Origin: an uncultured Solibacteraceae bacterium
GTDB lineage: Bacteria > Acidobacteriota > Vicinamibacteria > Vicinamibacterales > SCN-69-37
Length of the DNA: 64,000 nucleotides
Direction of reading: 5' to 3'
Assembly (NCBI GenBank): GCA_964471115.1
Contig: CAYYFE010000002.1
Span: 136,388-200,387, forward strand
A program made the translations under genes and the position numbers. Position 1 is the stretch's first letter. Every line of letters begins with the position of its first letter. This document shows, piece after piece, positions 1,233-12,099 of this stretch. The notes under the pieces are model-generated. The model searched no databases, was not told where the DNA came from, and saw nothing but the letters and a program-made list of their open reading frames with translations.

Positions 1233-1344
1233 TCTTCAGGCGAAATTCGTAATGGCCACTGCGGCCACGGCGCGAGGAATGTCGTGTGGCGTCCCTTCAA
1301 GTGCCCTCGAAAAGATGGCCAGCGGTTTGCAGTAACGCGTGCGC

Positions 1345-1638
1345 ATGGCGGATATCGTCGCGGAATATCCCATGCCGGTGCCGGGGCCGGACGGGGAGCG
1401 CTTCAAAGCCCGGGCGTGTGCGTTGCCGATGCCGAAGGGGACCTGGCAGGGCTGGATCGAGTTCAACCCGCTCAACGGGGAGCCGACCTTCCGGTCGCCT
1501 CGTGAAACGGTGCAGCCGTCCAAACACGCGATCGTCGTGTGGGCGGATACGTTGACCCCGCCCGCGCTGATCCAGGCGCTGGATCGGGCGTTGGAGCGGA
1601 TTAAACCTCTCTCGTCATCTCGACCATCGTTGGTCTGA
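1345..1638 (+). CDS. Hypothetical small protein
   Basis: ORF track 1339..1638 (GTG); an ATG lies at 1345. Composition is non-degenerate (MADIVAEYPMPVPGPDGERFKARACALPMPKGTWQGWIEFNPLNGEPTF...) with high GC3. The 3' end overlaps the convergent GNAT gene. I recognise no family. Confidence 0.45.
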   Translation: MADIVAEYPMPVPGPDGERFKARACALPMPKGTWQGWIEFNPLNGEPTFRSPRETVQPSKHAIVVWADTLTPPALIQALDRALERIKPLSSSRPSLV

Positions 1639-2101
1639 AGCCTTCCGACTCGAACAACGCCCGCGCACGGGTGTTGGCGGCGGCGGTCCACAGCAACACA
1701 CGCGGCACGTCGTGGCCGCGCAGCCACGCGATGGCGGCGTCGAGCAGCCGCGTGCCCAGGCCGGTCCCCCTGGCCTCCTCGATGATCAGGATGTCGTGGA
1801 TGTACCCGGCGCGATCGCGGAGTTCCTTCCAGGACAGCGGCTCAACGGCCGCAAACACATAACCCACGATCCGGGCCGCCGCGCCCTCGCGCTGCTCCGC
1901 CACGAAGACACACGCTTCCGGGTTCCGCAGCTGCGCCTCGAGGAACGCCGCGTAGCCCGCTTCCGGGTTGTCGCCGGGCGCCAGGAACCGCCGGCTGTCG
2001 AAGGCGTAATGCGCGCGCATCAGCGCCGCGCCCAGCGCGCCCAGCGCCGGCACGTCGGCGGTTCGCGCCGGACGAATGGTGACGTCAGCGGTGGGATTCA
2101 C
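1601..2101 (-). CDS. GNAT-family N-acetyltransferase
   Basis: 166 aa with an acetyl-CoA-binding-type motif, IIEEARGTGLGTRLLDAAIAWLR, and a typical GNAT length. Confidence 0.85.
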   Translation of the reverse strand: MNPTADVTIRPARTADVPALGALGAALMRAHYAFDSRRFLAPGDNPEAGYAAFLEAQLRNPEACVFVAEQREGAAARIVGYVFAAVEPLSWKELRDRAGYIHDILIIEEARGTGLGTRLLDAAIAWLRGHDVPRVLLWTAAANTRARALFESEGFRPTMVEMTREV

Positions 2102-4979: not shown

Positions 4980-6053
4980 TCAGCGGAAGGTGCGGCGCAA
5001 GGTTTCGCGCCAGGCGCGGCTGGTCTGCCGCAGTTCGAGCAGGCGCGGGTGCGGGGTGCCGGGGCCGGGCGTGAGCCACGGCACCTGGTGCAGCACTTGT
5101 CGAGGCGAGGCCACAAGGCCCGGGCCGATGCCGATCAACGCAACCATCAGGGCGACGGCCACGAACCGGCGACGCCCACGACTCCACGCGGAAGGAGCCG
5201 CCGCATCGTCAAGCAGGCGTGTGACCCGCTGGACCAGCGGGGAACCCGTGGCGGCCACACCCAGGCCCGCGCCCTCGCGCCGTTCGGCCAGCGTCACCAG
5301 CGCCGAGGCCAGCGCGCCGGCGTCGCCCGTCACGGCCACGGCCACATCGTCGGCCGCTTCTTCGGCGGCGGCCCGCAGTCGACGCAGCGCCACGCGCGTC
5401 AGCGGCTGGAACGGCACCAGGCAGACAAGCCAGGTACAGAGCGCGAGCCACAGCGGGTCGCGGCGATCGAGGTGCGCCAGCTCGTGCGCGATGATGCCGC
5501 GCCGTTCCAGCGGGGTCCAGGTGTCGAGGTCCTGCGCCGGCAGACAGATCTCGCGCGAGCCCAGCGCGGCTGGGACGCCGGCGCGCGACGTGACGGTGAT
5601 CCGCGGCGCGCGACACGCCATCGTGGCCGCCAGGGCCAGCACCTCGTCGCGCAGTTCGTCGCCCGCGTCGACGCGGCGTCCGAACATCCGCCGCACGGTC
5701 AGCGTGGCGGCGATCGCGCGGATGCACAACAGCCCGGCCACCGCCAGGGAGAGGGCGGCGGCCAGTGCGCCCAGGCGCCAATCGATGAACGCGGCGGGAA
5801 AGAGCAGTGCAGGGTCCGGTCCGGTCAGGGGCCCGGCAAGCCACCCCGCGGTGTGCATCACTGACGTGATGAATGGCGCGATGATGGCCGTCCGCCAGAG
5901 CAGCACCCGGTCGATCGCGGCGGTGCGGCGATACCTGAGCCACACGAGAACGCCGGCGATCAGGATGGTAGAATGGGCCAGGTAGGTGAGGACCCAGCTC
6001 ACCAGGACCACCGCGATCGCGACAAGCGTCACTTCCGCCAGTGGCGGCATCAC
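4980..6053 (-). CDS. M56-family (BlaR1-like) membrane metalloprotease lacking a C-terminal penicillin-sensor domain
   Basis: 357 aa with N-terminal TM helices and the zinc motif HELAHLDRRD. The start overlaps the blaI stop. There is no PBP-like sensor domain after the protease region. Confidence 0.8.
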   Translation of the reverse strand: MMPPLAEVTLVAIAVVLVSWVLTYLAHSTILIAGVLVWLRYRRTAAIDRVLLWRTAIIAPFITSVMHTAGWLAGPLTGPDPALLFPAAFIDWRLGALAAALSLAVAGLLCIRAIAATLTVRRMFGRRVDAGDELRDEVLALAATMACRAPRITVTSRAGVPAALGSREICLPAQDLDTWTPLERRGIIAHELAHLDRRDPLWLALCTWLVCLVPFQPLTRVALRRLRAAAEEAADDVAVAVTGDAGALASALVTLAERREGAGLGVAATGSPLVQRVTRLLDDAAAPSAWSRGRRRFVAVALMVALIGIGPGLVASPRQVLHQVPWLTPGPGTPHPRLLELRQTSRAWRETLRRTFR

Positions 6054-6442
6054 GACGAGCGGCCTTTCCTGGCCTGATGGGCGTCAAGCATGCGGCGCAG
6101 TCGCGCCACATCGCCCGGCTTCGTCTCCGATTGCGAGACCGCAAAGGAGACCATCGCGGCCAGATCGCCCTGGAACAGTCCGCCCAGCAGGCCGTTGAGT
6201 CGCGCAGCCATCACGGCTTCGCGAGTCACCCGCGCGCGATAAAGAAACTCGCGGCCGTCGGCGCGATGGGCAATGACGCCCTGACGTTCGAGCCGGTGCA
6301 ACATCGTGCCGACGGTGCCGCGGGCCAGCCCCGTGCGTGCGGCCAGGGCCTCATGGACCTCGTTGGCCGTGACCTCGCCGCGTGTCCACAGGACATCGAG
6401 GATCGCGAGCTGCTGGTCGGTCAGGTCGTGCGGCCGTTTCAC
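6050..6442 (-). CDS. BlaI/MecI/CopY-family transcriptional repressor
   Basis: 130 aa: LTDQQLAILDVLWTRGEVTANEVHEAL...GTVGTMLHRLERQGVIAHRADGREFLYRA. This is the typical penicillinase-repressor winged helix. The start is GTG. Confidence 0.9.
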   Translation of the reverse strand: MKRPHDLTDQQLAILDVLWTRGEVTANEVHEALAARTGLARGTVGTMLHRLERQGVIAHRADGREFLYRARVTREAVMAARLNGLLGGLFQGDLAAMVSFAVSQSETKPGDVARLRRMLDAHQARKGRSS

Positions 6443-6458: not shown

Positions 6459-6581
6459 GATCGTCAGCCTCCGGGTCAAGCCGCGGCCGGCCGTGACAAC
6501 TGTCACCAGGCTGGGGTGACGGCCGGCACTGCCAGCCCCGCCTCTTGGCCGCCATCATCGATGGCACAAGGAGATTCGACC

Positions 6582-7142
6582 ATGACCACTGCCGCCTACT
6601 CTCTCGAAGCTGCCAGACACGAAGTCACCGCCGCGTCCACCGGAGGCGCGCCGTTCCTGCTGGCCTTTGGCTTGACTCTGGGCCTGACCGGCCTGGCCGC
6701 ATTTTCACTGGACGTGCGCACGGTGGCGTTGATCACGCTCTTTCAAGGCAACGTCGCGCTGCCGCTCGCGTTCTGGCTCGAGCGCCGGATGAGCGACGTG
6801 CGCCTGTCGCCGGACAATCCGCTGCGGCCGCTGTCCATTCAGCTGGCCACCTCCCAGTTGCTTGCGTTACCGGCCGTGCTCTTCGTCTTTGGCCTGGCGC
6901 CCGCCGCCGTCCCCGCGGCGATGGCGGCCACCGGCGCCGCGCACTTCCTTCCGTATGCGTGGCTGCAGCGGACGAAGTTGTACGCCGGGCTCGCGGTGGC
7001 CGTGGCGATCGTGCCGTTCGTGATCACCGTGACGTTGCGCACCGCCGCGCCGCCCTGGGTCCTGCTGTTCCTCTCGGGCGTGTACTTCGTGATGGCTGTG
7101 CTGGTGCGCCGGCGCGCGCGCGCCCTCATAATGGCGGCCTGA
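6582..7142 (+). CDS. Hypothetical integral membrane protein, first gene of the two-component operon
   Basis: ATG 6582 is preceded by AAGGAG. The product (MTTAAYSLEAARHEV...) has several hydrophobic helices. The upstream part of track ORF 6306..7142 is Arg/Ser-rich junk. Confidence 0.6.
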   Translation: MTTAAYSLEAARHEVTAASTGGAPFLLAFGLTLGLTGLAAFSLDVRTVALITLFQGNVALPLAFWLERRMSDVRLSPDNPLRPLSIQLATSQLLALPAVLFVFGLAPAAVPAAMAATGAAHFLPYAWLQRTKLYAGLAVAVAIVPFVITVTLRTAAPPWVLLFLSGVYFVMAVLVRRRARALIMAA

Positions 7143-7145
7143 CGA

Positions 7146-8206
7146 TGCTGCCGTACCTCTGGCTGGTGTATGCGGCGTTTTATGCCGTGTATCCGTTCGT
7201 GTTCGGGCCCGGGCCACTGGGCTGGGCGCCGCATCTGGCCGGGCTGCTCGCGTTTCTCGCGCTGTACCTGATCGGGTTCCGCGCCTCCGGCCAACGGCGG
7301 CTGTTCTTCGTGGCCGCGCTCACCGTGCTGGGGGTGGTATCCGCCTGGTTCAACCCCGGCGGTCTGGTGTTCTTCATTTACGCCTCCTCGCTGGTCGGCG
7401 GCGCGGTGACCGGCTGGCCCATCGGCCTGTGGATTGGCGGCGTGACATTGGTGGGCGTCGTGACGGCCGCGTCCATCGACGGGTTCCAGTGGATGATGCT
7501 GGCGACCGTGGCGGTCTTCACGCCGCTCATCGGATTCGTCAATGTGCAGGCCGCCGCCGCGCGCCGGCGCGACGCGTCACTGCGTATGGCCCAGGAGGAA
7601 ATCGCGCGGCTGGCCGTCGTCTCCGAACGGCATCGCATCGCGGCCGACCTGCACGATGTGCTGGGGCACACCCTGTCGGTCGTGGTGCTCAAGGCTGAGC
7701 TGGCCGCGCGCCTGGCCGAGGCGGATCCGGCGGCGGCCCGTGCCGAGATGCTCGAAGTGGAACGTGTCGCCCGCGAAGCCCTGGCCTCCACGCGCAAGGT
7801 CGTGACGGGCATGGCGATGACGACGCTGGCCGATGAACTGCTGCGCGCGCGAACGGTGTTGGAGGGCGCGGGCATCGTGGTGACCACCGACCCGGCCGAC
7901 GGTCGTCCCGACCTGTCCGCGGTGGCCGGACCCGCCCAGCACGCGCTGGCGATGGTGCTGCGCGAGGCGGTGACCAACGTGTTGCGGCACGCAAGGGCCG
8001 CGCGGTGTCACGTGGCCGTTGCCGTGGCCTCAGGGACGGCGCGCCTTGAAGTGGCCGATGACGGCCGCGGCGCCGACCTGCGTGAAGGCAATGGCATGCG
8101 CGGCATGCGGGCGCGGCTGCAGGAAGTGGGCGGCGACCTGCAGGTGGCGGCCGGCGCGGGTGTTCGGGTGACGGCAACGGTTCCCGCGCGAGGAGTGGAC
8201 GCATGA
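7146..8206 (+). CDS. Sensor histidine kinase, HisKA_3 (DesK/NarX-type)
   Basis: The start at MLPYLWLVYAAF is followed by TM helices. The H-box is HRIAADLHDVLGHTLS and an ATPase region is present (ADDGRG...GNGMRGMRARL). The track ORF from 6545 is an artefactual 5' extension. Confidence 0.85.
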
Positions 8207-8805
8207 TTCGGGTGGTCGTGGCGGAAGACCAGGCCATGGTGCTGGGCGCCTTGTCGGCGCTGCTCGGCATGGAGCGCGATCTCGAGGTGGTGGGCCGCGC
8301 CGCCAACGGCACTGAGGCGCTGGAGCTGGCGCGCCGCCTGCGCCCCGACGTCATCGTGACCGACATCGAGATGCCCGAACTGTCGGGGTTGGACCTCGCG
8401 GCCGCGATTCGCACGGAGCGCCTGCCGTCGAAGGTCATCGTGCTGACGACGTTTGCGCGGCCGGGGTATCTGCGCCGCGCGCTTGACGCAGGCGCGGCGG
8501 CGTACCTGCTCAAGGACGCGCCGTCGCACCAGCTCGCGGATGCGATTCGCCGCGTGGCCGCCGGCGGCCGGGTGATCGATCCGGAACTGGCGGCCGACGC
8601 CTGGTCGGAGGCCGACCCGCTGACCGACCGCGAGCGGCAGGTGTTGCGGCTGGCGGCCGATGGGTTGTCGAGCGGCGAGATTGCCGCGGAACTCGCGCTG
8701 TCGGACGGCACCGTCCGCAACTACCTGTCGGAGGCCATCAGCAAACTCGGCGCGAAGAACCGCGTCGAGGCGGCCAATCTCGCGCGGGCGAAGGGCTGGT
8801 TGTAG
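8203..8805 (+). CDS. Response regulator, NarL/LuxR family
   Basis: 200 aa with a receiver domain (VIVTDIEMP) and a LuxR HTH (LTDRERQVLRLAADGLSSGEIAAELALSDGTVRNYLSEAISKLGA). The start overlaps the kinase stop. Confidence 0.9.
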   Translation: MIRVVVAEDQAMVLGALSALLGMERDLEVVGRAANGTEALELARRLRPDVIVTDIEMPELSGLDLAAAIRTERLPSKVIVLTTFARPGYLRRALDAGAAAYLLKDAPSHQLADAIRRVAAGGRVIDPELAADAWSEADPLTDRERQVLRLAADGLSSGEIAAELALSDGTVRNYLSEAISKLGAKNRVEAANLARAKGWL

Positions 8806-8810
8806 GCGCG

Positions 8811-9239
8811 CTACGCCGGGATGATGACGGGAAAACCTTCGAGCTGCGCGGCTTTCGCCAGCGTGTGGTCGCGCGTGACCACGGGAAGCTGATCCGGCTG
8901 GCCGTCGGCCGCCGCGATCGCCGCCGCCAACTGCATCGCATCGCCGGCCTTGAGTGGATGCATGGTCACGATGCGTTGTGCGTGGGGGCTGACACGCTGC
9001 CAGTCAGCCACTCGCAGCCAGGTGCGCCATTGCCGGATCATTTCAGCGCGGAGCCCCGGCCACAGATCGTCCATGTCCCGGCTGTGCCGTTGCCAGCGTG
9101 CCAGGACGGAGAGCAGTTCCACGCAGGTGCCCTCCCAGACGATCACGCCCGGGTCGTCTGCCATGTGCTGCCGGCAGGCCGGCGTGGAGGCCTCGTCGAG
9201 AAAGACAGGCAGGAGTGCGGACGTGTCCCAGAATTTCAC
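8811..9239 (-). CDS. vapC: PIN-domain toxin (VapC-like)
   Basis: 142 aa. The N-terminus MKFWDTSALLPVFLDE (conserved acidic D) is typical of PIN toxins. The gene overlaps the upstream antitoxin by 4 nt. Confidence 0.85.
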   Translation of the reverse strand: MKFWDTSALLPVFLDEASTPACRQHMADDPGVIVWEGTCVELLSVLARWQRHSRDMDDLWPGLRAEMIRQWRTWLRVADWQRVSPHAQRIVTMHPLKAGDAMQLAAAIAAADGQPDQLPVVTRDHTLAKAAQLEGFPVIIPA

Positions 9240-9568
9240 CAGGGCGCCTCTTCACGCATCTTCAACAGCAGGTCCGAGAGCGCCGGCGTTCCGGCCGGGC
9301 GCTTGAGGGGCTTCACGGATTTCGCCCATGCGGCCACTGCCGCCGGGTCGCCCCGATGCGAGATCACTCCCCGCTGGTAGAGGTCGTCGATCCGAGCCTC
9401 CTCGTCGGCGGCCGACGCACGGCGCCGCTTGGGACGGGCCTCCTCACGGTACGGCACCAGCCGCGCGACAGGCTGATTCCGGTCCATCACGATGACCTCC
9501 TCGCCCTCACGCACGGCCTTGACGTACTTCGAGAGGTTGTTCTTCAAAATAGCTATGTTGGCCACCAT
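9236..9568 (-). CDS. Phd/YefM-type antitoxin
   Basis: 110 aa: MVANIAILKNNLSKYVKAVREGEEVIVMDRNQPVARLVP. This is the classic Phd/YefM N-terminus. An imperfect palindrome, ATAGCTATGTTGGCCACCATACATGGCTAT, spans the start codon. Confidence 0.8.
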   Translation of the reverse strand: MVANIAILKNNLSKYVKAVREGEEVIVMDRNQPVARLVPYREEARPKRRRASAADEEARIDDLYQRGVISHRGDPAAVAAWAKSVKPLKRPAGTPALSDLLLKMREEAPW

Positions 9569-9676
9569 ACATGGCTATTATAGCTATGAATTCTCCCAGC
9601 CTTTCAGTGCTCCATGTGAACGTCCGTGCGTCCTTTTCCGGGGTCCTCCGTCTGTAGGGCCGAAAGGAGACGAACC

Positions 9677-9769
9677 ATGGCCAACAACAACGAGACAGTG
9701 ACCTGTTGCAGCAGCGGCTGCTGCGGCGGGGCGTGCAACTGCGGCGAAGGCACGGGCTGTTGCGGATAA
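9677..9769 (+). CDS. Unannotated 30-aa cysteine-rich peptide (metallothionein-like)
   Basis: My own translation gives MANNNETVTCCSSGCCGGACNCGEGTGCCG-stop, with 8 Cys in 30 residues. AAGGAGA lies 7 nt upstream of the ATG. The TAA stop is 1 nt before the ATG of the ECF sigma gene. The ORF is too short for the ORF track. Confidence 0.5.
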   Translation: MANNNETVTCCSSGCCGGACNCGEGTGCCG

Positions 9770-9770
9770 C

Positions 9771-10409
9771 ATGACGACGGTGGCGGACATCACGACGGAG
9801 GCGCTCTGGCGGCAGTTCCACGCGGACCTGCTGCGCTTCGTGGCCCGTCGTGTGTCCAACCCCGCGGACGCGGAGGACGTCGTGCAGCGCGTGTTTCTGC
9901 AGGTGCATCGCGCGTTGCCGACCCTCCGCGATTCCGACCGCCTCCACGCGTGGATGTATCAGACGACGCGGCGGGCGATCATTGATTTCTACCGGTCCGC
10001 GCCACACCGGCGCGAGGTGCCGGCCGGCGGCGCGGCCGAGGTGGAAGAGAGCCTGCCGCCGCAGGTGATTCCCGGCGACGAGTCGTCGGCCCTGTCGGAG
10101 CTGGCCTCGTGTCTGACGCCGCTCCTCGCGCAGTTGCCTGCGCAGGATCAGGAAGCGCTGGCGCTCGTCGAGTTCCACAACCTCACCCAGGCGGACGCCG
10201 CGCAGCGGCTGGGGGTGACGGTGTCCGGCATGAAGAGTCGCGTTCAACGGGCCAGACGACGCCTGCGCGACGTGGTCGACGCCTGTTGCCGGGTGGAATT
10301 CGACCGCCGCGGCGGCGTCATGGCCTACCAACGCCGCGCCGACGCCTGCCGCTGCTCATCCAATCCCCAATCCCAAATCCTCAATCCACAATCCTCAATC
10401 GGTGAGTGA
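9771..10409 (+). CDS. ECF sigma factor with C-terminal Cys-rich extension (CorE-like)
   Basis: Sigma region 2 is present (DAEDVVQRVFLQVHR, WMYQTTRRAIIDFYR), as is region 4 (LTQADAAQRLGVTVSGMKSRVQRARRRL). They are followed by DACCRVEFDRRGGVMAYQRRADACRCS. Confidence 0.85.
   Translation: MTTVADITTEALWRQFHADLLRFVARRVSNPADAEDVVQRVFLQVHRALPTLRDSDRLHAWMYQTTRRAIIDFYRSAPHRREVPAGGAAEVEESLPPQVIPGDESSALSELASCLTPLLAQLPAQDQEALALVEFHNLTQADAAQRLGVTVSGMKSRVQRARRRLRDVVDACCRVEFDRRGGVMAYQRRADACRCSSNPQSQILNPQSSIGE
10361..10402 (+). repeat. Six tandem heptamers CAATCCN, inside the 3' end of the sigma gene
   Basis: The units are caatccc caatccc aaatcct caatcca caatcct caatcgg. They encode the tail NPQSQILNPQSSIG. 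Confidence 0.9.
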
Positions 10410-10454
10410 ACCCCCCTGCCCCTCTTCCTCGTCAAAAGCCCCGGAGGTTTCTGT

Positions 10455-10877
10455 ATGAGACAGGGGATTGTGGCGGGGATGGCGGCGGTGGTCATGGGCG
10501 CGATGCTGGTGCTGCCCGGTTCCGCACAGGCGCCGACCTACAGCGTGTCGTGGCTGGCGGGCCCCCCGGGAGAGGAACAGACCTACACCGGGACGACCAC
10601 GTTTGCCGTCGACGCCAAGGGTGTGGTGAGCGGCAAGATGACGTTGACCAGCCCGGCGACCGTGACCGGCACGCTGGCCGGCACCGTGGCCAAGGACACC
10701 TGGACGTTTGAGTATCCGTACGAAATTCCCGAACAGCAGTGCTCGGGCACGGTGAAGGGGACGGCCAAGGTGGCGGCCGGCCGGAAGACGATTCAGGGCA
10801 CGGCGACGATCGGCGGCGGGTGTGTGCCCGAGCCGATGGCGTCGACGTTCACGTTCACCCTGCAGGAGAAGAAGTAG
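10455..10877 (+). CDS. Secreted hypothetical protein
   Basis: 140 aa with a signal peptide ending PGSAQA. The mature part is Thr/Gly-rich with two Cys. It lies directly downstream of the ECF sigma gene. Confidence 0.6.
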   Translation: MRQGIVAGMAAVVMGAMLVLPGSAQAPTYSVSWLAGPPGEEQTYTGTTTFAVDAKGVVSGKMTLTSPATVTGTLAGTVAKDTWTFEYPYEIPEQQCSGTVKGTAKVAAGRKTIQGTATIGGGCVPEPMASTFTFTLQEKK

Positions 10878-12099
10878 TCACGCGTGCGCCGTCGGTGAGA
10901 TCGCGCACGGTCTGAAACGGGCCGGTGACGATCGTGGCGCCTTCGGTGAGCCCGTCGACTTCAATCGACAGGCCGCCGATGATCCCGGTCGTCACCGGCG
11001 TAAACACGGCGCGATCGCCCTCCACGCGGAACACGCCGCTGCGGCCGTCGCGTTGCACCACGGCCTGCAACGGCACGGCCACCACGTTCGTGCGTTCGGC
11101 AACCAGGATTTCGGTGTCGCACGTCAGGCCCGGCCGCAACGTGGCCACATCGCCGTCGAGCCGTACCTTCACGCGGAACTCGCGCGCGGCAGCCTGGGCG
11201 CCGGTCTGCGGCAACGCACTGGCGCCGATTTCGACCACGCGGCCGGCAAAGGGCCGGCCCGCCAGCGCGTCGAGGGTGATGGTGGCGGGCTGATCGAGCG
11301 CCAGGCGCAGCACGTCGGCTTCGGCCACCTTGACCTCGGCGTTGAGTGCGCTGAGATCCGAAATCGTCATCAGGATCGTGCCGGGCTGATTCTGCACGCC
11401 CATCACGACCATTTCGCCCTCTTCAACATCCAGCCGCGTGACGACACCATCAATGGGTGAGGTGATCGCGGTCTTCGACAGCTGATCGCGCACGCGCGCC
11501 TGTTCGGCGCGTCCCTGTGACACCCGTTGCAGGGCGGCGTCGCGCGCCTGGCGGGCGCGCGCCACGGCCGCCTGCGCCGCCTGCACCTGCGCGTCGTTGG
11601 CGTCGGCCGCGGCGACGGCGGCGTCCAGCTCCGACTTGGGCAGCAGGCCCGAGGCCGACAGCTCCCGCGCGCGACGCACGGCTTCAGTGGTCTGCGCCTG
11701 GCGCGCCTGTGCGGCGCTCAGATCGGCTTCGGCCGATCGCACGGCGTTGGCCGTGCCGGCCGCGTCGGCTTCGAGCGCGGAAAGCGCGGCGGTGGCCGAG
11801 GCCACCGCGCTTTCGGCCTGCACCGGATCGATGCGCGCCAGCACCTGCCCGGCCCGCACGCGATCCCCTTCGCGCACCGACAGGCTGACCAGCCGTCCCA
11901 TCACCGACGACCCCAGGTCGGCGTATTTCGTTGCGACGATTTCTCCGGAGGCGGTGACGTACGAACGCAGCGTCTGCACGCGCGCCACCGTGGTGGTCTC
12001 GACCTCGATGGCCTCGCCGCCGCGACCCCTGCTCCAGAACCACGCGCCCGCCGCCACGACGACGAGCGCACCGATACCGACACTCCGCGAGATCCGCAC
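10855..12099 (-). CDS. Periplasmic adaptor (membrane-fusion protein), HlyD/MacA family
   Basis: I chose the start at GTG 12099, preceded by AGGAGG, giving MRISRSVGIGALVVVAAGAWFW (TM anchor). A coiled-coil Ala/Gln region follows, then a lipoyl/beta-barrel part (SPIDGVVTRLDVEEGEMV). The track start at 12342 adds Arg-rich junk. Confidence 0.85.
   Translation of the reverse strand: MRISRSVGIGALVVVAAGAWFWSRGRGGEAIEVETTTVARVQTLRSYVTASGEIVATKYADLGSSVMGRLVSLSVREGDRVRAGQVLARIDPVQAESAVASATAALSALEADAAGTANAVRSAEADLSAAQARQAQTTEAVRRARELSASGLLPKSELDAAVAAADANDAQVQAAQAAVARARQARDAALQRVSQGRAEQARVRDQLSKTAITSPIDGVVTRLDVEEGEMVVMGVQNQPGTILMTISDLSALNAEVKVAEADVLRLALDQPATITLDALAGRPFAGRVVEIGASALPQTGAQAAAREFRVKVRLDGDVATLRPGLTCDTEILVAERTNVVAVPLQAVVQRDGRSGVFRVEGDRAVFTPVTTGIIGGLSIEVDGLTEGATIVTGPFQTVRDLTDGARVTTSSPAG

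Follow-up and report, generated by a model that had tools for sequence, protein, structure and literature searches.

The closest described counterparts of the system analyzed here are CorE and CorE2 of Myxococcus xanthus, extracytoplasmic function (ECF) sigma factors that need their cysteines for metal sensing and work without an anti-sigma factor (PMC4937300, PMC8999054). CorE-like proteins, of the ECF44 type, carry a C-terminal domain of 28-38 residues with six cysteines, plus an essential CxC in the linker between sigma2 and sigma4.2 (PMC4937300), a CxC found only in those members of the merged group ECF238 that formerly made up ECF44 (PMC8999054). ECF238 also holds SigZ of Bacillus subtilis and has a short (about 20 aa) C-terminal extension containing cysteines; those of SigZ, which likewise has no anti-sigma factor, are suspected to be functional (PMC7826278). 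In the literature searched we found no report of a cysteine-rich co-cistron or of an arsenic link for SigZ of B. subtilis. Here we analyze a stretch of 64,000 nucleotides (the window) from an uncultured Solibacteraceae bacterium of the Acidobacteriota (contig CAYYFE010000002.1, positions 136,388 to 200,387), in which a sigma gene of SigZ/ECF238 type is immediately preceded by an unannotated open reading frame (ORF) of 30 codons, the mini-ORF, encoding a peptide with eight cysteines. The locus raises a double question: Is the mini-ORF a gene, and if so, what would such a peptide do beside a sigma factor that has conserved cysteines of its own?

The Mini-ORF and Its Orthologs

The mini-ORF lies at 9677-9769 of the plus strand, running from an ATG at 9677-9679 through 30 codons to a TAA at 9767-9769, and its product, MANNNETVTCCSSGCCGGACNCGEGTGCCG, has 8 cysteines in 30 residues (27%) and no aromatic residue. 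The cysteines follow the spacing CC-x3-CC-x3-CxC-x5-CC-G, with three vicinal CC pairs and one CxC within 22 residues. A Shine-Dalgarno sequence, AAGGAGA, can be read directly at 9664-9670 of the same strand. The first-pass annotation of this DNA had pointed to a short ORF with eight cysteines directly before an ECF sigma gene, with which our coordinates and translation agree, and to the AAGGAGA, for which it gave a spacer of 7 nt; the motif stands, but the spacer to the ATG measures 6 nt. It had also placed the sigma ATG 1 nt past the TAA, without an obvious ribosome-binding site, and both features are directly legible: the junction is TAA-C-ATG (9767-9773, plus strand), with a single nucleotide (C, 9770) between the mini-ORF stop and the sigma ATG at 9771, and a GGAGG-like site is absent from the 15 nt (GGCTGTTGCGGATAAC) that precede this ATG. 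The ORF listing contains no earlier in-frame start for the sigma gene.

Related loci were fetched to a total of 173, of which 80 are genomic, 80 metagenomic, and 13 derive from exact-protein look-ups; the metagenome loci came from a profile scan, a scan with the single sigma protein having confirmed none. Counts based on the sigma factor refer to 171 loci, since L172 and L173 were fetched with a small Rhodococcus protein instead of a sigma. L162 and L163 are identical copies of the window locus and thus not independent of it. There are two independent orthologs of the mini-ORF, in loci L161 and L164, whose sigma factors are 83% and 65% identical to that of the window, and they encode peptides of 29 aa (MANPQTTTCCSNGCCGGTCTCGDGTGCCG) and 23 aa (MACCNNGCCGGSCSCGDGTGCCG), respectively. 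All 8 cysteines, 6 glycines, and the GTG-CC-G end are preserved across the three peptides, and the core common to the three lineages (sigma identity 100/83/65%) reads CCxxGCCGGxCxCG[DE]GTGCCG-stop, with Gly and Thr conserved besides Cys. What varies is the N-terminus, which has 2, 8, or 9 residues before the first CC, an in-frame change of length. Over the 22 codons of the core, window and L164 differ at 13 nucleotides, distributed 2/3/8 over codon positions 1/2/3; six codons, with TGC/TGT among the changes, differ synonymously and five differ in the residue encoded, each of these at one of the five variable positions, and the TGC/TGT and GGN changes among the orthologs are synonymous. A conserved cysteine pattern with synonymous drift at related loci, as the first-pass annotation had anticipated for a genuine gene, is seen in the L161 and L164 alignments. 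Both orthologs have a Shine-Dalgarno sequence before the mini-ORF (GAAAGGAGA in L161, GAAGGAGA in L164) and a tight stop/start junction, which in L161 is TAA-C-ATG as in the window and in L164 is TAG-TGTG-ATG. Given the conserved orthologs, the Shine-Dalgarno sequence, and the junction, the mini-ORF is very likely, as initially proposed, a genuine gene that is coupled to the sigma gene.

Cysteine density alone does not carry this argument beyond chance, because the GC-rich window holds about 20 comparable segments in its six frames (at least 6 Cys in 25 residues); a second, out-of-frame stretch has 8 Cys in 22 residues. What exceeds chance, judging from the sequence comparisons, is the set of conserved orthologs, together with the conserved promoter and the positional enrichment of cysteine-rich coding before genes of this sigma family, both of which are described below. 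The peptide has no match in Pfam or NCBIfam at E <= 0.1. We also considered RNA structure as the conserved feature of the region and rejected it: When the three orthologous leaders are folded to a consensus, the predicted hairpins stem from repeats of TGC/GCA codons, show no covariation (term of -0.43 kcal/mol), and lose several of their pairs in L164, while positions 9300-10100 have no match in Rfam. The region does not resemble a regulatory leader or attenuator either, as it has no conserved alternative RNA structures and fixes Gly and Thr besides Cys. We conclude that selection probably acts on the peptide sequence and not on RNA structure, for a sample of three lineages.

A Conserved Promoter Motif Upstream of the Mini-ORF

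Upstream of the mini-ORF lies a motif of two blocks that is conserved across related loci: a -35-like element, TGCGTCC, at 9627-9633 and a -10-like element, CGTCT, at 9649-9653, both on the plus strand. In the form TGCGTCCTTT-N12-CGTCT the motif spans 9627-9653 and ends 23 nt before the ATG of the mini-ORF; it is the same in L161 and L164, and the extended consensus drawn from 89 unique sites is TGCGTCCTTT-N9-C-NN-CGTCT-N-T. Within the window, the pattern GCGTCCTT-N13-CGTC has a single match (9628-9652), and 9627-9653 is the sole site in 64 kb to reach at least 10 bits with the position weight matrix, scoring 42 bits. Allowing one mismatch in the pattern, or scanning with the matrix, uncovered no further copies in the window. 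Among the related loci the motif has 97 exact matches in 909 kb, as against 0.2 expected from base composition, and 80 of these 97 lie on the sigma strand no more than 1.5 kb upstream of the sigma gene, covering 78 of the 157 loci that have enough upstream sequence to be counted. The motif has two blocks, the second of CGTC type, at a fixed spacing, is strand-specific, and stands before the sigma operon, from which we infer that it is an autoregulated ECF promoter; transcription from it would start at about 9660. A scan of 9200-11200 for sigma-70 promoters and terminators found none.

Cysteine-Rich Modules and Arsenic Genes Associated with the Sigma Family

Named via NCBIfam and Pfam, the first gene behind the motif is a metalloenzyme of ArsI/CadI type in 20 cases, the sigma itself in 17, the arsenite methyltransferase ArsM in 16, a DUF2703 protein of thioredoxin fold in 12, and a small cysteine-rich protein in at least 6; the remaining 20 include PIG-L/LmbE-type deacetylases, ABC ATPases, a tautomerase, and methyltransferases. 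A similar range emerges when the nearest gene on the upstream side of the sigma gene is counted instead, with about 40 cases of ArsI, 24 of ArsM, 16 of DUF2703, and 14 of small cysteine-rich ORFs (all approximate), in addition to the three loci of window type. DUF2703 has been described in ars clusters of actinobacteria (PMC6514093).

Cysteine-rich tails of the form CC-x6-CC-x6-CC-G-x7-9-CGC[RQ] or CC-x3-CC are present on many of the upstream proteins. We define here the three-CC module as CC-x5-7-CC-x5-7-CC-x5-12-CxC[QRT] with conserved P/E/Q/K residues between the CC pairs; it occurs as a free protein of 50-80 aa or fused to DUF2703, ArsM, and ArsI/CadI proteins. When a profile including the window peptide was searched, it retrieved the three-CC family only and no window-type peptides. 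Six-frame translation of the related loci yields 112 matches to CC-x(2-8)-CC in 864 kb, 42 of which are on the sigma strand and precede the start of the sigma gene by no more than 120 nt; a further 15 map to the other strand, 650-1500 nt downstream from that start, and are the actinobacterial cases described below. In about two-thirds of the loci with an upstream cysteine-rich match, its stop falls between -7 and +9 nt relative to the predicted start of the sigma. No cysteine-rich module is found nearby in 42 of about 157 loci, and the ArsI or ArsM forms are often without a tail. The module also stands at the N-terminus of actinobacterial arsenite methyltransferases (MAELT..CCAPEAQAACCEPSAKAECC..CGC.. 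in P0144, P0147, P0178, P0185, P0198, and P0214) and hence appears to be mobile, since it is found at either end of ArsM. The longer three-CC proteins have no family in Pfam or NCBIfam.

In Rhodococcus, Nocardia, and Pseudonocardia the module takes the form of a protein of 57-68 aa (M..PTCCSTERQTTCCDHSEKSTCCGPAATAGGGCGCQ) with three CC pairs and CGC, encoded convergently with the sigma gene and, in some loci, divergently. In the six loci checked (L018, L020, L022, L025, L026, and L030) the gene for this protein is on the minus strand, some 800-1000 nt past the sigma start, with a promoter copy of its own, and the sigma gene too has a motif-like site, at a distance of about 100 nt upstream; in L172 and L173 the protein is found at 6001-6177. 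Of 34 codon columns, 14/19/33 vary at codon positions 1/2/3, and public databases list the protein as 'hypothetical protein', with one 'Metallothionein' label. In Rhodococcus it sits between genes for P1B-type ATPase and CsoR and the sigma gene, the local minimal unit being the sigma plus the small cysteine-rich protein.

Some actinobacterial and other loci add further genes to this picture. A second copy of the motif lies downstream of the sigma gene, before a gene for a PIG-L/LmbE-family deacetylase, in L032 (5181-5984), L047 (5180-), and L155 (1193-1969). Mycothiol-related amidases belong to this family, a hint that the regulon may have a branch for thiol metabolism in Actinobacteria. In L152 (1862-2116) the motif precedes a gene for an 84-aa protein of no Pfam family, in which a CC...C.C segment is followed by a hydrophobic, membrane-like C-terminus; this may be another form of cysteine-rich regulon member.

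Alternative Occupants of the Slot before the Sigma Gene

The closest clade, comprising relatives with 55-70% sigma identity, shows three states behind the same promoter. In the window, L161, and L164 the mini-ORF comes before the sigma gene, and in L004 a different small ORF with CCGSSCC takes that place. In L001-003, L165, L167, L168, and others arsM precedes the sigma gene, following the same promoter and Shine-Dalgarno sequence, and in L167 and L168 the junction between the two is GGATAACATG, identical to that of the mini-ORF in the window. In the third state the sigma gene follows directly, 8-25 nt past the -10 block, as in L170/171, L091, and L093 (promoter sites at L170 2467-2503, L171 815-851, L091 692-741, and L093 214-275), which suggests leaderless or near-leaderless sigma mRNAs in these loci. 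By comparison of these loci, the mini-ORF takes the slot that is held by arsM in sister lineages.

The Sigma Factor and Its Cysteines

The sigma gene (9771-10409, plus strand) encodes a protein of 212 aa that matches Sigma70_r2, Sigma70_r4_2, and Sigma70_ECF of Pfam and TIGR02959 (SigZ) of NCBIfam, the latter with 174 bits against a curated cutoff of 168.65. One cysteine, Cys114 (codon at 10110-10112, plus strand), lies just before sigma4 and is a cysteine in 120 of 120 homologs. Four more form a C-terminal cysteine domain (10284-10355, plus strand), in which the homolog alignment recovers C172 and C173 in 120 of 120 sequences, C193 in 114 of 119, and C195 in 105 of 115; they lie within a stretch of 24 residues (CC-x19-C-x-C), C193 and C195 enclosing an arginine, so that the C-terminal CC...CRC reported at first pass is indeed present. 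In the AlphaFold2 model (predicted local distance difference test, pLDDT, of 75) the last sigma4 helix is followed by a beta-hairpin, at residues 173-188. A sequence search of the PDB for structures of SigZ/CorE type returned ordinary ECF sigmas only, with matches ending near residue 170-175, so that an extension of this kind is covered by no solved structure.

How close is this protein to CorE and CorE2? They share a C-terminal extension rich in cysteines, cysteine between sigma2 and sigma4, no anti-sigma gene, and metal(loid)-related neighborhoods, and they fall in the one enlarged group, ECF238 (PMC7826278). CorE and CorE2 differ in having the linker CxC instead of a single Cys114, and six instead of four C-terminal cysteines; none of the 120 homologs has a CxC in residues 80-140. 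Strict CorE/ECF44 identity was rejected on these two counts. The initial assignment to CorE-type sigmas thus holds for the group, with its anti-sigma-less proteins bearing a cysteine extension, and fails for ECF44 in the narrow sense: The sigma is of SigZ/ECF238 type, and a CorE-like mode of working can be proposed by analogy only. The gene neighbors also differ, being ArsM, ArsI/CadI, and DUF2703 for the family of the window sigma and Cu/Cd efflux pumps for CorE and CorE2; no upstream cysteine-rich ORF is reported for corE or corE2, the latter being preceded by a lipoprotein gene (PMC4937300). As in SigZ, there is no sign of an anti-sigma factor, and the early statement that the locus has no anti-sigma gene agrees with neighbor proteins devoid of an anti-sigma domain.

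The 3' end of the sigma gene contains a heptanucleotide tandem repeat, CCAATCC x5.9 (85% matches, 10360-10400), encoding the tail SNPQSQILNPQSSIG past the last cysteine. A change in its copy number would alter the frame of the final sigma codons only, and the tails of L161 and L164 are unrelated.

Genomic Neighborhood

Upstream of the mini-ORF and sigma gene the window has a Phd/PIN toxin-antitoxin pair; downstream come a secreted protein of 140 aa, a protein of HlyD/MacA type, and two permeases of MacB type. The 45 nt between the sigma stop and the start of the secreted protein (10455-10877, plus strand) hold no terminator-like site; AlphaFold2 models this protein as an eight-stranded barrel (pLDDT 87), which in its fold weakly resembles barrels of lipocalin, nitrobindin, and avidin type. 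Homologs of it lie directly downstream of the sigma gene in L164 and L165, and on the contigs of L001 and P0024. Owing to this conserved position it is a plausible operon member, and probably the last gene of the sigma operon. The first-pass annotation had listed it as a possible regulon member together with the adjacent MacA/permease genes, before which no promoter motif is found. The protein belongs to an unannotated family of about 100 clusters and has two invariant cysteines (C96 and C123).

On the other side, the genes of the Phd/YefM antitoxin (9236-9568) and the PIN-domain toxin (8811-9239) lie on the minus strand, divergent from the mini-ORF operon, with a Phd/YefM antitoxin gene at the same place in L161. 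Just upstream of this pair are the genes of a histidine kinase (HisKA_3) and of a response regulator of LuxR type (6545-8805), with a stop/start overlap at 8203-8206. In L161, a MIP/aquaporin-family gene (1270-1932, minus strand) is convergent with the sigma gene and overlaps its 3' end; it may encode an aquaglyceroporin-type metalloid channel.

Possible Roles of the Peptide

In our reading, to which we would give a probability of roughly 55%, the mini-ORF is a real mini-gene for a thiol-rich peptide that binds metals or metalloids and is made together with a cysteine-sensing sigma factor, serving as its buffer or partner. The locus would be an operon of three genes, for the cysteine-rich peptide, the SigZ/ECF238-type sigma, and the secreted beta-barrel protein, which the sigma would transcribe from 9627-9653 in positive autoregulation, the mRNA beginning about 17 nt before the mini-ORF ATG. 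Ribosomes would load at the strong Shine-Dalgarno sequence, read the 30 codons, and stop 1 nt before the sigma ATG; since the sigma gene has no Shine-Dalgarno sequence of its own, the sigma would be translated by re-initiation, and because of this peptide and sigma would be made together. The peptide would then bind thiophilic metal(loid)s through its vicinal cysteine pairs, with As(III)/MAs(III) favored by the family neighborhoods and Cd/Cu/Zn possible, while the sigma would sense the same species through its five cysteines (C114, C172/173, C193, and C195), by analogy with CorE2. By buffering or handing over the inducer, the peptide would set the threshold and the shut-off of the response.

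Arsenic is the leading candidate for the inducer, because ArsM, ArsI/CadI, and DUF2703 are the commonest motif-driven genes. The same family context turns the focus away from Cu, Zn, and Cd specifically, the metals named at first pass, toward genes for arsenic or thiophilic metal(loid)s. The label 'metallothionein-like' given at the same time reflects composition only, and the peptide falls in no Pfam or NCBIfam family. It does resemble metallothioneins of small size, such as the Cu-thioneins of fungi with about 25 aa and SmtA/BmtA and MymT of bacteria, in being very short, rich in Gly/Ser/Asn, and endowed with CxC and CC, but it stands outside known sequence families, is dominated by CC pairs, and is the first cistron of a sigma operon. 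A second likeness is to the vicinal-cysteine sites of ars proteins, such as the cysteine pairs of ArsD, a vicinal-cysteine metalloid site comparable to the CC pairs of the window peptide, and the cysteine-rich ends of ArsM, in which CC pairs also lie a few residues apart; the window peptide differs in being free-standing and shorter, with the spacing CC-x3-CC-x3-CxC-x5-CC, and in lying in a window that has no ars gene. Finally, operons in which a sigma factor is translationally coupled to its anti-sigma share with this locus an autoregulated promoter and tight cistrons leading to a fixed ratio of products. Here, however, the order is reversed, the small partner coming first, and the partner is of 23-30 aa and has neither an anti-sigma domain nor a transmembrane segment.

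Several observations weigh against the reading of a metal(loid)-binding peptide co-made with the sigma. Searching the window peptide with phmmer against 1.84 billion representative proteins gave 0 matches, which is expected insofar as the mini-ORF falls below the limits of gene callers, and the window-type peptide is found in three independent lineages only. Equally close relatives carry arsM in its place or have the sigma gene directly behind the promoter, and because they do without the peptide, it must be dispensable for the sigma as such. Moreover, the peptide does not fit the CC-x6-CC-x6-CC...CGC spacing and aligns with the three-CC module through its cysteines only; it shares the setting of the module, behind the TGCGTCCTTT...CGTCT promoter and adjoining a SigZ-type sigma gene, so that the link between the two is by analogy of position and composition, with homology unproven. 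Arsenic, too, is no more than a candidate inducer, because the Rhodococcus island also has Cu/Cd-type P1B ATPases and CsoR, and CorE2 senses Cd/Zn. In the window itself, tblastn of ArsM, ArsI, DUF2703, MIP, and the three-CC protein gave no match, and the 64 kb contain no ars gene.

If the peptide is not primarily a buffer, the next possibility is that it is a dedicated partner of the sigma, a small anti-sigma factor or co-sensor acting, for example, through a metal(loid) bridged between the two sets of cysteines. The family offers several arguments in this direction: the cysteine-rich module stands beside the sigma in no fewer than four layouts (upstream and coupled, as part of the tail of an upstream enzyme, convergent, and divergent), the minimal unit of Rhodococcus is just the sigma and the small cysteine-rich protein, with a promoter copy before the protein in all six actinobacterial loci checked, the tight coupling would fix the stoichiometry as in sigma/anti-sigma pairs, and no neighbor is another candidate for an anti-sigma. 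Yet the 42 loci without a module nearby and the frequent tail-less forms of ArsI and ArsM, the presence of the module on ArsM N-termini apparently independently of any sigma, and the fact that CorE and CorE2 function without a partner (PMC4937300) lead us to regard a dedicated partner as unlikely, if worth pursuing. A leaner alternative dispenses with the peptide altogether and takes the mini-ORF as a leader or coupling device that loads ribosomes for the sigma gene, its product being functionless; in one variant, the run of Cys codons might tie sigma translation to Cys-tRNA or cysteine supply. This would agree with a sigma gene that has no Shine-Dalgarno sequence and starts 1 nt after a stop, with a GC-rich hairpin that is predicted immediately before the sigma start, and with the relatives devoid of the ORF, in which the promoter lies 8-25 nt from the sigma ATG and sigma translation is handled differently. 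Pure delivery of ribosomes, however, would not need an amino-acid sequence kept through synonymous changes, nor a fixed Cys/Gly core behind a variable N-terminus; the predicted RNA pairs lack covariation and break in L164, as seen above, and in other phyla the analogous cysteine-rich protein is not a mere sigma leader because it is a separate transcription unit or an enzyme tail. We consider this alternative to be distinctly improbable.

The remaining alternatives concern the origin of the ORF or its reality. Since arsM occupies exactly the same slot in the closest clade, where it shares both the promoter and the GGATAACATG junction, the mini-ORF could be a relic of a cysteine-rich loop or tail of arsM, kept only for delivering ribosomes to the sigma gene. 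The N-termini of ArsM in this clade do carry SGCCSSDCCG- or GGCCGGGSGCG-like loops, and the best local DNA match of the mini-ORF is to the CCSSDCC codons of L002 arsM, with a score reached by 0 of 200 codon shuffles. This similarity, however, is not reproduced across arsM genes or with the ORF of L164, most comparisons remaining within the range of the shuffles, and a neutral relic would not hold 8 Cys and 6 Gly down to 65% sigma identity; a relic of this sort is very improbable, and origin as an arsM deletion remnant was rejected as unsupported, given the inconsistent alignments. That the ORF is due to chance, or else is the precursor of an exported, modified peptide akin to ribosomally synthesized and post-translationally modified peptides and handled by the neighboring MacAB-type transporter, is scarcely credible. 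Cysteine-dense frames are common by chance in the GC-rich DNA of the window, and HlyD/MacA and MacB-type genes are adjacent, but the orthologs are conserved together with Shine-Dalgarno sequence and promoter, no maturase gene lies nearby, the peptide has neither leader nor signal, the MacAB synteny extends to relatives without the mini-ORF, and the motif is missing before the transporter genes.

Significance for SigZ-Type Sigma Factors

The literature searched contains nothing that links SigZ/ECF24/ECF238 with arsenic genes, DUF2703, or a cysteine-rich co-cistron, although a brief mention in a supplement on ECF classification is possible. We found no published description of the pairing of peptide and sigma, which the first-pass annotation had suspected to be new; it is not a one-off, being one local form of a broad association. 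The comparisons point to an anti-sigma-less ECF sensor of the cysteine type with a previously unnoticed cysteine-rich partner, of which the peptide of 23-30 aa would be the smallest form. A bolder generalization, which we hold only tentatively and consider doubtful, is that SigZ/ECF238 sigmas are the sensor-effectors of an undescribed arsenic or soft-metal(loid) system in Acidobacteriota, Actinomycetota, Nitrospirota, Myxococcota, Chloroflexota, Cyanobacteria, and Gemmatimonadota. In such a system an obligatory vicinal-cysteine module, free as 23-80 aa or carried on ArsM, ArsI, or DUF2703, would present the metalloid to the five-cysteine site of the sigma or withhold it, as a minimal thiol-based anti-sigma or co-sensor, and the window peptide would be its smallest known form.

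SigZ-type (ECF238) sigmas are common, yet to our knowledge most have no known signal or regulon, and only the divergent CorE and CorE2 have been studied. The present locus and its relatives supply candidates for each missing element: a promoter motif, a regulon (ArsM, ArsI/CadI, DUF2703, and small cysteine-rich proteins), a class of signals (arsenic or other thiophilic metal(loid)s), and a partner peptide that gene callers overlook because it is 23-30 codons long. Should the peptide tune or gate the sigma, it would represent a new and very small kind of sigma-factor regulator; should it only buffer the metal(loid), it would amount to a new, minimal thionein of bacteria, its expression being tied directly to the sensor. 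The arsenic methylation and demethylation genes of many uncultured soil bacteria may answer to an ECF sigma and not to ArsR.

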